A stretch of 64,000 bases of DNA from assembly GCA_000004695.1 (NCBI GenBank), contig CM000153.2:1888001-1952000 (forward strand). The letters are read 5' to 3'. The notes under the pieces are model-generated. The model made no database searches, was not told the DNA's origin, and was given only the letters and a program-made list of their open reading frames with translations. Each line of letters starts with the position of its first letter. The stretch's first letter is position 1. Source of the DNA: Dictyostelium discoideum. Taxonomy: Eukaryota. Shown one piece after another: positions 47,986 to 55,832 of this stretch. The translations under genes and the position numbers were made by a program.

Positions 47986-50051
47986 TTATTTTTTTGGAAT
48001 CAAAATTGGATGAGCTTCAGTATTGAAAATATATTTATCTAATGGAATAACTGACGAAGGTTGGAATGATAAATAAAGATATTTTAAAGTTTCTGACATA
48101 AAGAAACTTTCTTGAGTATCATCCAAAGATTTTCTATCATCAACATTTTTAAGACCATTATAACCATTTTCATGTCTACAAACATCTTCAATTGCTTTAA
48201 AGATTTTCCATGACCATTCTTGATATTTAGTATTACCTAAAAAAAAAAAAAAAAAGGTATTAGTACTACTACAACTACAACCACTACCACTACAACTACA
48301 ACAACTACTACTACTACTACTACTACTACAACCACTACCACTACAACTACAACCACTACCACTACAACTACAACAACTTCTACTATTACTACTACTACTA
48401 CCTTACTACTACTTCTACTAAAATTATAATTAATTAAACATACCTGTTAAACGATATAAAATGAATAATGATTCAACAGTTTCAGGACGTAAAATATAAC
48501 AACTTAAAGTACCAGGACCATTCCAACTAATATTACCAGAATTTGGATCGACACGGAATGATTCGGGAGCTAAACCAGATGGTGAAGTTAAATAAGTTTT
48601 TACGCAAGTTTTAGTTATCATTTCACCAACTTCCATATACTTAGCAGACTTTTTATCATCTTGAGTAATATTTGCAGCGGCAGCTAATGCAAACATGCCG
48701 CCAGCGAAACAAGCTAAATGTTCTTGAATGTTGGTTAGAGAGTTATGATCCATGGCTGAAAGGTAACCATCACCTTTTGGGGAAACTTTGTACAAATGTT
48801 CAATGATAGAATCGGCAGATTCAACAAATAGACGTCTATAGATTTCGTCTTCACCATTTGTATAAATCCACATCTTTAAGAGATATTCATAATAGGAATC
48901 ACCTAAACCACCAATTGTAATAAAACTACCACAGAAACCATTTGCGTCTTGATTTACAAAAACTGGTAATAGACCTGGAATTTTTGGTTTCAATTTGGAT
49001 AGAGCATCAATCACTCTATCAGAGTATTCCTTATACTTTGGATCACCTGATATTCTTGAAAGTTCATTAAATTCTAAAAATAATGTAGATACTGCTGATA
49101 AAATTACACAACCACTTGGATATGACTTTCCATGAGTTGCTAATCTAATTTGTGATGCTGGGAATGGATTTTTAGTGTCTTCTGGGAATGCATATAATAA
49201 TAAATCACCAATCTCTACTGCTTTCTCTAAATACATTTCATCATTTGTTAATCCATACATTGTTACATGTGATCCTAAAACTCTAATAATCGTTTCAAAT
49301 ACTGAAACTGCCATTCCCTTTTTTTTTTTAAAAAAAATAAAAATAAATTAAAATAAAATAAAAATTAATAAACATAAACCTTGAAACCATAAATATATAT
49401 CTATTATAAACATACAGTATTTTTAGATTGTTTTAATTCATTGGCAACCCAATCTCTACCTTCTTTATATTCTTTATCTAAATTCATAATTTTAAGAGTA
49501 TCTAAAGAATCAATAATTGTTAGACCAAGACCAAACCATTCTTTATGACTTTTTGTTAATGGTCTTAATTCATCTCGACCCCATGCAAATTCTCTATATT
49601 TTTCCCAGGCATGTTTCATTGCTCCTCTAACTTGTTCTGATCTTTTAATATTTAATTTTTCATTTTGATAATATACTTCATCAATTTTATTATATGGATT
49701 TTCTGTTTTCTTATAATCATAATTATTATTATTATTATTATTATTATTATTATTATTATTATTATTATTATTATTGTTATTATTATTATTATTATTATTA
49801 TTATTATTATTATTATTATTATTATTATTATTATTATTATTATTATTATTATTATTATTATTATTATTATTATTATTATTATTGGTATTATTATTATTGG
49901 TATTAACTTTTTTTTGATTTACATTTTTCCATTTATCAGGAATTCTATGAGCATCGATTTTATTTGTTCCTTCAAAACTTAAAATAGTAGATATACCAAT
50001 AAGGAAAGCTACAATTACAATTGCAAGAAACAGTTTGATTTTTGTGTTCAT
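47986..50051 (-). CDS. GH47 class-I alpha-1,2-mannosidase, paralog 1 (3 exons, 586 aa), with an N-terminal signal anchor and a 57-Asn linker
   Basis: Exons 50051..49416 (donor ACT|GTATGT), 49317..48444 (donor g|GTATGT) and 48236..47986. The GH47 signatures are [38 protein letters not shown] and C-terminal [16 protein letters not shown]...[10 protein letters not shown]. Confidence 0.75.
48258..48420. repeat. ACT/ACA/ACC-rich minisatellite with unit ACTACAACTACAACCACTACC, inside intron 2 of GH47 paralog 1 only
   Basis: The intron is 205 nt with this insert, against about 70 nt in paralogs 2 and 3. Other introns in this window are almost all A/T, so its GC content stands out. Confidence 0.8.
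49722..49880 (-). repeat. (AAT)n coding microsatellite giving a 57-residue poly-Asn linker in GH47 paralog 1
   Basis: (ATT)n on the plus strand, about 53 units with two GTT interruptions. The same position in paralogs 2 and 3 has only 8-20 Asn. Confidence 0.9.
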
Positions 50052-51161
50052 TTTTTTTTTTTTTTTTTATTGTAATAACAATAAAAATGTAATTATTGTG
50101 TTAAAAAAAAAATAAAAGGGGAGGGGTACTAAAAAAGGGGAAAAAAAACCGTGGCTTAAACTGAAGGCACCAAGTTCGCAAAAAAAAAAAAAAAAATTTG
50201 CAAAAATAATTTTTTATTTTTAAGAAAGAAAGTTAATATCTTCAGTTTCTGGATCACAACAAATATTGTGGGCTATTAATAATTTATTATATTTTCTCTT
50301 CGCTATTACTATTGTTTGGTTTATTTATTTGTTTATTTTTTTTTCAATTTTTGTTTGACCAAAAAAAAATAAAAAAAATAAAAAAAATAAAAAATAAAAA
50401 AAGATATTTTTTAATTTGGTTTTGAAGGTAAATATTGAACAGAAGCAACAAAATCCTCATCGATTAAATTCATTTGGGTTGGTGAAATGAAAGAATGGGT
50501 GTTGTTTTAAACGAATCCAAAAATCTCAATGTAAATTTGGTTATTTGATGATTTATAACTCCATCCTTCCAGTTTCATCAACTTCTCCGTTCTATCTATT
50601 AATACATCTTTATTACCTGTAATTGAATAATTAGTGTTTTGCTTTTATCCAACTTTTGGATAAAAGGTGTTTTTTTTGTATATCCATCTCCAACCTTATC
50701 TTTTTCACAAATATCCAATTTTTTTAAAATAAATATCCATAGTTTTTTTTTTTATATTGAGATTGTTGAAATAAAAAAAAAAATCATAAAAAAAAAAATA
50801 AAATAAAAAAAAATAAAAAAAAATAAAAAAAAAAAACGTTTTTTGAAAAAAATTAAATTTTTTATTGTTGTTTATTTATTTATTTTTTTTTTATTATAAA
50901 AAAAAAAAAAAAAATTTAGAAAAACCTTTCATCAAAAATTAATATATAAATAAATTAATATTTATTTAATTTAAAAAATCTAAATCTAAATCCTTTTTTT
51001 TTTTTTTTTTTTTTTTTTTTTTTTTTTTTTTTTTTTATCATCTATCCACAACTCATTTATTTTTTTGGAATTAAAATTGGATGAGCTTCAGTATTGAAAA
51101 TATATTTATCTAATGGAATAACTGACGAAGGTTGGAATGATAAATAAAGATATTTTAAAGT

Positions 51162-53480: not shown

Positions 53481-54016
53481 CCCCTTTTTTTTTAACATTA
53501 TTTTATAATAATTTCCACATTATGATATTTTTATTTTCTAGTTTCAGGTATAAAAAAAAAAACAAAAAAAAGGGGAATGAATAAAGAAAAAGCAATTTTT
53601 TTTTGTTTACACACAAAAGTAGTGGGTTTATTTTTTAAAAAAAGTGAAAATTAATTTTTTTTTTTTACTCTTTATAAAATTACTAAAAATGTGGAAATTT
53701 CAACATTAATTGTTTATTTATTTATTTTTTTTTTTTTTTTTTTTTTTTTTTTTTTTTTTCACTTAAAAAATCTTATTTTCTCCACACACAAATTTTTTTT
53801 TCCACCTAAAATTTTTTTTTATACCAGATTTAAATGATATTTTTTTATTTTTTATTTTTTTTAATTTAAAAATTTTATTGTTGTTTATAAAAATAAATTC
53901 AGTAAAACCTCATCAAAAATTAATATAAAAAAAATTAATATTTATTTAATTTAAAAAATTTAAATCTAAAACTTTTTTTTTTTTTTTTTTTTTTTTTTTA
54001 TCGGTCCACAACTTAT

Positions 54017-55832
54017 TTATTTCTTTGGAATCAAAATTGGATGAGCTTCAGTATTGAAAATATATTTATCTAATGGAATAACTGACGAAGGTTGGAATGA
54101 TAAATAAAGATATTTTAAAGTTTCCGCCATAAAGAAACTTTCTTGAGTATCATCCAAAGATTTTCTATCATCAACATTTTTAAGACCATTATAACCATTT
54201 TCATGTCTACAAACATCTTCAATTGCTTCAAAGATTTTCCATGACCATTCTTGATATTTAATATCCCCTAAAAAAAAAAAAAAAAAAAAAAAAAAAAAAA
54301 AAAAAAAAAAAAAAAAAAAAAATTAATATACCACTAATTTACTATTATTACTAAAATTATAATTAATTAAACATACCTGTTAAACGATATAAAATGAATA
54401 ATGATTCAACAGTTTCAGGACGTAAAATATAAAAACTATATGTACCATGAACATTCCAACTAATATTACCAGAATTTGGATCGACACGGAATGATTCGGG
54501 AGCTAAACCAGATGGTGAAGTTAAATAAGTTTTTACGCAAGTTTTAGTTATCATTTCACCAACTTCCATATACTTAGCAGACTTTTTATCATCTTGAGTA
54601 ATATTTGCAGCGGCAGCTAATGCAAACATGCCGCCAGCGAAACAAGCTAAATGTTCTTGAATGTTGGTTAGAGAGTTATGATCCATGGCTGAAAGGTAAC
54701 CATCACCTTTTGGGGAAACTTTGTACAAATGTTCAATGATAGAATCAGCAGATTCAACAAATAGACGTCTATAGATTTCGTCTTCACCATTTGTATAAAT
54801 CCACATCTTTAAGAGATATTCATAATAGGAATCACCTAAACCACCAATTGTAATAAAACTACCACAGAAACCATTTGCGTCTTGATTTACAAAAACTGGA
54901 AATAGACCTGGTATGCTTGTTTTCATTTTGGATAGAGCATCAATCACTCTATCAGAGTATTCCTTATACTTTGGATCACCTGATATTCTTGAAAGTTCAT
55001 TAAATTCTAAAAATAATGTAGATACTTCTGATAAAATTACACAACCGCCAGTCCAACCTGGATATGACTTTCCATGAGTTGCTAATCTAATATTTGATGA
55101 TGGGAATGGTTTTTTAGTGTCTTCTGGGAATGCATATAATAATAAATCACCAATCTCTACTGCTTTCTCTAAATACATTTCATCATTTGTTAATCCATAC
55201 ATTGTTACATGTGATCCTAAAACTCTAATAATCGTTTCAAATACTGAAACCGTCATTCCCTTTTTTTTTTAAAAAAAAAAAAAATAAATTAAAATAAAAT
55301 AAAAATTAAAAAACATAAACAATAAAACCATATATATATATCTATTACATACAGTATTTTTAGATTGTTTTAATACATTAGCAACCCAATCTCTACCTTC
55401 TTTATATTCTTTATCTAAATTCATAATTTTAAGAGTATCTAAAGAATCAATAATTGTTAGACCAAGACCAAACCATTCTTTATGACTTTTTGTTAATGGT
55501 CTTAATTCATCTTGACCCCATGAAAATTCTTTATATTTTTCCCATGCATGTTTCATTGCTCCTCTAACTTGTTCTGATCTTTTAATATTTAATTTTTCAT
55601 TTTGATAATATACTTCATCAATTTTATTAAATGGATTTCCTGTTTTCTTATAATTTTTATTATTATTATTATTATAATTATTATTATTATTATTTTGAAT
55701 TACAATTTTCCATTTATCAGGAAATCTTTGGGCATCGATTTTATTTCTTCCATCAAAACTCAAAATAGTAAATATACTAATAAGGTAAGCTACAATTGCA
55801 ATTGCAAGGAACAGTTTGATTTTTGGGTTCAT
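54017..55832 (-). CDS. GH47 alpha-1,2-mannosidase, paralog 3 (3 exons, 537 aa)
   Basis: Exons 55832..55353, 55259..54377 and 54267..54017. It carries the same signatures as paralog 1 with an intact C-terminus ([37 protein letters not shown]). Read-through into the intron adds a false tail to track ORF 55269..55832. Confidence 0.75.

Follow-up and report, generated by a model that had tools for sequence, protein, structure and literature searches.

The 64-kb stretch of Dictyostelium discoideum DNA analyzed in this study (contig CM000153.2; hereafter the window) carries three closely related genes of glycoside hydrolase family 47 (GH47), designated copies A, B and C, at a locus whose neighbors are a BEACH-domain gene and the filactin gene. 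Our data make it highly probable that this array is a young tandem triplication of one ancestral gene in the AX4 lineage, and that the copies have since been subject to gene conversion, divergence and decay under relaxed constraint. The coordinates of the genes and of other relevant features are compiled in Table 1.

The array was delimited by self-comparison of the region between 44 and 60 kb and by comparison of one unit with the whole window. Exactly three copies were detected, arranged head-to-tail on the minus strand with offsets of 2806-3071 bp between A and B and of 2960-2999 bp between B and C, so that the 3-kb period proposed by the original prediction, which had been made from the sequence alone, was recovered as 2.8-3.07 kb. 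In each repeat unit of approximately 3 kb, a three-exon GH47 gene is preceded by 65-340 bp of promoter and followed by a 3′ flank of about 200 bp. Among the copies, the gene bodies are 94.7-95.4% identical across approximately 1400 bp (E = 0). Gene models were obtained by reading the minus strand and, as predicted, show a common structure: the exon borders reside at equivalent positions in all copies, and the introns (GTATGT...AG) interrupt A, B and C at the same positions. The G+C content is low (ca. 22-27%), and long homopolymer runs are present at the edges of the units.

The copies differ in their introns and Asn tracts, among other features. Intron 2 comprises 207 nt in A, 71 nt in B and 109 nt in C, with a (GTA)n microsatellite in A and a T53 run in C, which agrees with the differing intron contents noticed before. 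Strongly differing lengths had also been predicted for the poly-Asn tract, and this part of the claim stood; the counts are 59 (A), 16 (B) and 11 (C) instead of 57, about 20 and about 12. The 3-aa indel of the original prediction (KSYPSGC against KTYPGWTGGC) was found as well, the longer form reading K[ST]YPGWTGGC in B and C. Plus-strand open reading frames (ORFs) of 94-105 aa encoding poly-Ile (49665-49982, 52603-52902 and 55602-55886) were rejected as genes, being the antisense of the (AAT)n stretches that encode the Asn tracts.

The assignment to GH47, likewise part of the original prediction, was substantiated by a match to the Pfam profile PF01532 (Glyco_hydro_47) with E = 1.1e-153 and 513 bits, which extended end to end over profile positions 1-453 of 455. 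The best matches in PDB were 1nxc (E = 4e-100) and 1fo2 (E = 4.5e-95), identity to the solved structures of Golgi ManIA and endoplasmic reticulum (ER) ManI being 40-45%. The locus is thus predicted to encode Ca2+-dependent class I alpha-1,2-mannosidases. By exact protein look-up, copy C corresponds to XP_638605.1/Q54PP9 of D. discoideum AX4, and the truncated copy B to XP_638604.1/Q54PQ0, annotated with 510 aa; hence, B and C are already annotated in the AX4 reference as GH47 proteins. The 586-aa model of copy A had no exact match in the protein collection searched, and ORFs taken at the level of single exons were absent from it as well.

Functional residues were mapped by help of the 1fo2 alignment (offset 239), which places E330, D463, E599, C527 and C556 of human ER ManI, a residue set listed in PMC5035969, on matching residues. 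The equivalents of the catalytic Glu, Asp and Glu belong to the motifs FETIIR, GDSYYEY and RPETVES, which are present in A, B and C; the respective columns are invariant in an alignment of 76 homologues. In the same alignment, the positions of Cys366 and Cys401 of copy C, which align to the disulfide cysteines C527 and C556, are nearly invariant and invariant. The Ca2+ site, formed by the Glu of ETLKY (human E663) and by the Thr and Glu of NTEAHP (T688 and E689), is kept in A and C and lost in B. The position of human Arg461 is occupied by Leu (GGLGD) as in mouse ManIA (GGLGDSFYEY), the human ER enzyme reading GARADSYYEY. Work on Arg273Leu in yeast reportedly revealed that Arg or Leu at this position governs branch specificity. 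By this rule, the Leu points to a resemblance to Golgi-type mannosidase I. An N-terminal hydrophobic stretch of 23 residues followed by an Asn-rich stem, both read from the sequence, fits a predicted type II membrane protein.

To compare copy numbers across strains and species, as had been suggested, the syntenic region was fetched from nine other assemblies using the GH47 and filactin proteins as handles. Three GH47 genes, including the stop in copy B described below, were found in L001 (GCA_054883475.1), a D. discoideum assembly. Because L001 is 99.5-99.9% identical to the window and differs from it within the array only in homopolymer lengths and at three single-nucleotide polymorphisms (SNPs), it belongs to the same lineage and corroborates the assembly. 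Each of the other eight assemblies (L002-L009) contains one gene or what is left of it. A single GH47 gene is present in L004 and L005, both labeled D. discoideum (561 and 559 aa, respectively), in L006 and L009 (D. citrinum), in L003 (D. dimigraforme) and in L008 (D. firmibasis). In L002 (D. cf. discoideum, GCA_054859205.1), exon 1 has kept its site but points in the opposite direction to exons 2-3, which stay open (9307-9837 and 9835-11215); the annotated product has 350 aa only, and the inversion could be real or a misassembly. L007 (D. cf. discoideum) retained a remnant without exon 1 and part of exon 2 (8453-9575), which survives from the middle of exon 2 on, is 82% identical and contains several frameshifts, and which by these features is a decayed pseudogene. 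As two related lineages carry a broken version of the single gene, this gene is probably dispensable in at least these two. At the single-copy loci, neither a second gene fragment nor the junction block shared by A and B (see below) was detected. Among the genomes compared, the triplication is confined to the AX4 lineage.

The upstream regions were duplicated along with the genes. Directly upstream of the ATG, at least 65 bp are common to all three units. The ancestral proximal promoter, as it exists in L004 and L005, comprises approximately 340 bp; B has preserved it as a whole, A with an internal deletion and C over approximately 220 bp. The distal CCACAATATTTGTTGTGA block is replaced in C by about 650 bp of AX4-specific inserted sequence. 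Upstream of A and B, the block reported before to be about 95% identical showed 94-95% identity. Still further upstream lies a block restricted to these two copies (50379-50470 and 53243-53345), which is missing from C and from all single-copy genomes and which fits a junction that arose in the first duplication and was multiplied in the second. This block ends in an ORF-like tail (...NLIDEDxVA...SVQYLPSKPN*), in which the copies differ by an in-frame length of 12 nt (four codons), and may derive from a piece of a 3′ exon that was captured at another genomic site. Another block, taken by the original prediction for a shared 3′ flank (50520..50640 against 56030..56160), turned out to be located 5′ of A and C and is absent from B; it is a relic of the upstream region that was carried with the duplicated unit.

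An upstream element common to the three copies had also been predicted. We found a GC-rich element of 22 nt with 0, 3 and 2 mismatches in A, B and C, respectively, none being expected by chance. The proposed distance of about 100 bp from each ATG applies to A (100 nt) and not to B (176 nt) and C (161 nt), because the proximal promoter of copy A has suffered a deletion of about 50 nt. The element also precedes the single-copy gene of L004 and L005 and is not alignable in more distant species; its conservation is no higher than that of its surroundings. It is therefore best described as a putative regulatory element. An origin of its '...GGCACCA' end from a tRNA or another known RNA was rejected, as ARAGORN detected no tRNA and Rfam no family in the window.

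The three copies are in different states, which was judged by invariance in the alignment of 76 diverse homologues and by polarizing the changes with outgroups. Copy C retained all 32 invariant columns of the alignment and by this measure remains a normal enzyme gene. In copy B, the nonsense mutation already noted in the original prediction was confirmed. The stop at Glu503, an amino acid that is invariant in 76/76 homologues, removes the last 35 residues, among them Thr and Glu of NTEAHP, and recurs in the independently assembled L001, whose annotation (P0001) dodges it by an invented splice that drops the ETLKY motif. In the human enzyme, E663 binds Ca2+ through hydrogen bonds and E663K has been reported to be pathogenic (PMC8260486). 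As the stop affects this Ca2+-coordinating Glu, copy B is probably a pseudogene or at best the source of an inactive truncated protein.

Copy A possesses an intact ORF with derived changes. Its Ala287 replaces a residue which is Glu or Asp in 73/76 homologues, and directly upstream of this codon a derived 9-nt deletion has eliminated the amino acids GWT. The human variant E397K, altered at the equivalent position of MAN1B1, had no measurable activity (PMC8260486). Both positions affected in the array, the equivalents of E397 and E663, are associated with disease in human MAN1B1. By outgroup polarization, the changes of A and B are copy-specific and derived, and the sequences YPGWTGGCVIL[SA]E and ETLKY are retained in every intact single-copy orthologue. 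Owing to the loss of the conserved acidic residue and of three neighboring residues, enzyme activity of copy A seems doubtful. The exchange was rejected as a loss of the catalytic acid: the equivalent of E330 is the Glu of FETIIR, which is intact in all copies.

The age of the array was inferred from tree topology and divergence. In a neighbor-joining tree calculated from 1432 exon columns, with bootstrap support counted by bipartition, A, B and C formed one clade with a value of 100%, the order inside the clade not being resolved. Exon 2 distances amounted to 2.2-2.5% within the array and to 4.1-4.8% between the array and L004/L005. Likewise, synonymous divergence (dS) was 0.027-0.043 among the copies versus 0.05-0.077 to L004/L005, the filactin gene giving a dS of 0.06 between the same genomes. 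Since dS among the copies is below dS to L004/L005, the duplications, or their last homogenization, postdate the separation from the nearest lineage sampled. For filactin, the ratio of nonsynonymous to synonymous divergence (dN/dS) was 0.06. This GH47 gene gave a ratio of about 0.24 in comparisons between species, and of 0.5-0.96 when the copies were compared with each other or with L004/L005; constraint on the gene is thus weak or relaxed. The 'birth' in the birth-and-death process proposed originally is supported by the occurrence of three copies only in the AX4 lineage, by their single clade and by the low dS; the 'death' by the nonsense mutation at an invariant residue of copy B and by the disrupted single gene in the two D. 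cf. discoideum assemblies. That the process is 'active' we infer from the relaxed constraint and from the mosaic site patterns described in the following.

Not all shared-derived sites of the copies are compatible with one tree: five unite A and C, at least five B and C (four of which are clustered within 14 nt), and one or two A and B. At a divergence of about 3%, we estimate that well under one coincidence is to be expected from parallel mutation. Because the incompatible sites exceed this expectation, segments must have been exchanged between the copies by gene conversion. Furthermore, the coding core is 97-100% identical in many 100-nt windows, while intron 1 and the flanks are less uniform. 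Gene conversion is therefore indicated by both the uniform core and the incompatible sites.

The SNPs that distinguish the window from L001, three across the 8.5-kb array, are all located within 307 bp at the 3′-end of copy C (54266 G/T, 54003 C/A and 53960 A/G). In each case, L001 agrees with the paralogues A and B; at 54266, which alone was checked in the single-copy strains, it agrees with these as well. The cluster could be a very recent gene conversion tract or an error of the reference or its polishing. A reading that takes gene conversion in the array to be visible between laboratory stocks, and at the same time copy A to be an emerging pseudo-enzyme, is improbable. As to its second part, copy A might have kept the GH47 fold without the E397-equivalent residue needed for activity and act as a mannose-binding lectin or regulator; behind this idea are the open frame, the retained promoter and the greatly expanded Asn stalk.

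An old array, which existed in the ancestor of the D. discoideum group, was homogenized by conversion and collapsed independently elsewhere via unequal crossing-over, would explain why the mosaic sites betray conversion or recombination between copies, why at several sites one copy (C at some, A at others) shares the state of L004/L005 against the remaining two, and why divergence is much greater in the intergenic spacers than in coding sequence. Such a history would however require an independent collapse in at least five lineages, none of which left a second gene fragment or the A/B junction block at a single-copy locus, and it must cope with the derived substitutions shared by A, B and C and with their fully supported clade. 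We thus regard it as improbable.

Adaptive amplification, by which three useful expressed copies were gained for dosage or diverged specificity and the raised dN/dS reflects positive selection, is quite improbable. A dN/dS of approximately 1 in parts of exon 2, the changes clustered near the catalytic RPE motif (NGPGTLSC in A against NVHGTYS[WF] in B and C, with W in B and F in C), the promoter kept by each copy and the independent GH47 expansion in other dictyostelids agree with it. On the other hand, copy B is truncated at an invariant residue of the Ca2+ site, a state that is stable in two assemblies, the breakage of the single gene in two related lineages marks the gene as dispensable, and no dN/dS was significantly above 1, the substitutions being few. 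An assembly artefact, in which one gene was assembled three times from divergent reads or alleles of a region that is rich in homopolymers and microsatellites and thus hard to assemble, is hardly conceivable, since the copies are non-identical (2-3% of the exon sites as well as introns, spacers and Asn tracts differ), the organism is haploid, and the chromosome-level assembly L001 independently reproduces the array with SNP differences at three sites only; the possibility of assembly duplicates, which had been raised with the original prediction, is answered in this way.

Some points weigh against a young triplication with subsequent decay. An old array may seem young as a result of gene conversion. 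In the distal spacers (50448-50852 and 53346-53831), sensitive BLAST comparisons with the upstream region of C and with the single-copy loci disclosed only low-complexity matches besides the block shared by A and C; these spacers therefore do not fix the exact breakpoints or the sequence of the two duplications. L004 and L005 diverge from AX4 by about 6% at synonymous sites of filactin, which seems high for conspecific isolates. These two assemblies may represent a cryptic sister lineage instead of conspecific strains, in which case their single gene would not speak for copy-number variation within D. discoideum proper. Finally, Ala at the E397 position is also encountered in 1/76 homologues, so that copy A may still be active.

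Nevertheless, a young triplication in the AX4 lineage explains the data best, and we propose the following course of events. The ancestral locus would have comprised one GH47 gene between the BEACH-domain gene and filactin. In the AX4 lineage, a unit of approximately 2.5-3 kb, in which the three-exon gene is flanked by a promoter of a few hundred bp and by a 3′ flank of about 200 bp, would then have been tandem-duplicated twice, most likely by unequal recombination in the AT-rich, homopolymer-rich flanks. Afterwards, with constraint relaxed, the copies would have exchanged sequence by gene conversion and diverged through slippage at microsatellites, indels between the genes and point mutations. 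The locus would be one case in which a dispensable branch of the GH47 family of dictyostelids has repeatedly gained and lost members in single lineages.

Table 1. Coordinates of the GH47 array and associated features in the window
Feature	Position	Strand	Remarks
Copy A, GH47 gene, 586 aa	47986..50051	-	exons 50051-49416, 49317-48444, 48236-47986; ORF intact, derived changes
Copy B, GH47 gene with premature stop	51057..52857	-	exons 52857-52354, 52261-51379, 51307-51057
Copy C, GH47 gene, 537 aa, intact	54017..55832	-	exons 55832-55353, 55259-54377, 54267-54017
3′ flank common to the three units	47792..47985	-	equivalents 50853-51056 and 53832-54016; downstream edge of repeat unit
TAA nonsense codon (GAA>TAA) in copy B	51162..51164	-	Glu of ETLKY; human E663 equivalent
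Codon GCA (Ala287) in copy A	49093..49095	-	Glu in B, C and all orthologues; human MAN1B1 E397 equivalent
(GTA/GTG)n microsatellite, ca. 52 copies	48264..48420	-	intron 2 of copy A; not in B or C
(AAT)n array of copy A, 62.7 copies	49711..49898	-	encodes the 59-Asn stem tract
(AAT)n equivalent of copy B, 20 copies	52653-52712		
(AAT)n equivalent of copy C, 15.7 copies	55648-55694		
22-nt GC-rich element TGGTGCCTTCAGTTTAAGCCAC (gene orientation)	50151..50172	+	located in the proximal promoter of A; equivalents 53033-53054 in B, 55993-56014 in C
Upstream region of copy A common with copy B	50052..50470	-	in B 52858-53345; ancestral proximal promoter, CCACAATATTTGTTGTGA block and A/B-only block
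Block 5′ of A and C	50528..50624	-	83% identical to 56050-56148 (upstream of C); B without block

Further repeats were observed in the intergenic regions. The spacer of B contains a perfect two-copy tandem repeat of 27 bp, which is G-rich (53349-53401); a suspected likeness to the repeats at 56600-56700 received no support. Upstream of C, a 26-bp tandem repeat with 2.2 copies includes the sequence CCAAT (56192-56249), and two segments between C and the BEACH gene (56030-56704 and 57076-57850, ca. 650 and 775 bp) are AX4-specific without a counterpart in L004/L005. Across this interval, one automated annotation places a spliced gene of 118 aa (L001 7963-9721), which looks doubtful. Also upstream of C, there is a direct repeat of about 120 bp (56725-56847 and 58066-58188; 81% identical, 1341 bp apart). 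The same segment is repeated in L004/L005, where the two repeats are closer together; within it, CCCACGTGG...GATTTCAGTGT is similar to the beginning of the GH47 promoter element.

The phenomenon as such is ordinary, a young tandem duplication with one dead copy in a well-understood family; young tandem duplicates including a pseudogene are commonplace, and the significance beyond Dictyostelium genomics is little. In the open literature, no paper was found on these genes, on Dictyostelium GH47 copy number or on the expression of these genes. For practical work, it should be considered that, among ten assemblies, only the AX4/NC4 lineage shows this copy number, that XP_638604.1 is probably the product of a pseudogene rather than a working enzyme, that knock-out and N-glycan studies on the mannosidase of this locus have to allow for up to three near-identical paralogues, and that short-read mapping and polishing are prone to paralogue cross-talk here. 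The locus may also serve as a small, well-dated example of repeated GH47 expansion and loss in social amoebae.

Compared with the solved GH47 enzymes, mouse Golgi ManIA (PDB 1NXC) and human ER ManI/MAN1B1 (PDB 1FO2/1X9D), the locus encodes the same full-length PF01532 domain, and copy C shares with them the catalytic Glu/Asp/Glu, the Glu/Thr/Glu of the Ca2+ site and the disulfide cysteines. The predicted hydrophobic N-terminal anchor and stem resemble those of type II Golgi and ER enzymes, and the Leu at the Arg461 position is that of Golgi ManI. Unlike the solved enzymes, the Dictyostelium proteins have a low-complexity poly-Asn stem of variable length and a 12-residue segment in place of the usual RxLGGLLSAY; moreover, copy B is cut at the E663 equivalent, and copy A carries Ala at the E397 equivalent with the adjacent 3-aa deletion.

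Birth-and-death evolution of tandem multigene families is the model of Nei and Rooney. With it, the locus has in common the tandem duplication including the promoter, the pseudogenization of one copy, the variation of copy number between close lineages and the loss or breakage of the orthologous single gene in some of them. Independent evolution of the paralogues without homogenization was however not observed, given the incompatible AC, BC and AB sites and the uniform core: the AX4 copies cluster by genome with mosaic sites, that is, they also evolved in concert. The locus is thus apparently a mixture of birth-and-death and concerted evolution, which with three young copies are not cleanly separable.

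A similar arrangement exists in Polysphondylium violaceum, where three tandem GH47 genes on the same strand (CYY_001131 to CYY_001133; L010 4726-12069; 566, 560 and 574 aa) follow each other at a spacing of 2.4-2.8 kb. In contrast to the AX4 array, these genes are neighbored on one side by a gene of unknown function, which is followed by a GOST_TM-domain gene, and on the other by an ABC transporter gene, are only 53-56% identical and are all annotated as full length. This triplication is independent and much older. In a protein tree of dictyostelid GH47, the paralogues found within D. purpureum group together, as do those within P. violaceum, and the D. discoideum group possesses three older clades, one of which is represented by the AX4 array locus. 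Because of this species-wise clustering and the independent P. violaceum triplet, repeated lineage-specific gain is a property of the GH47 family in these organisms.

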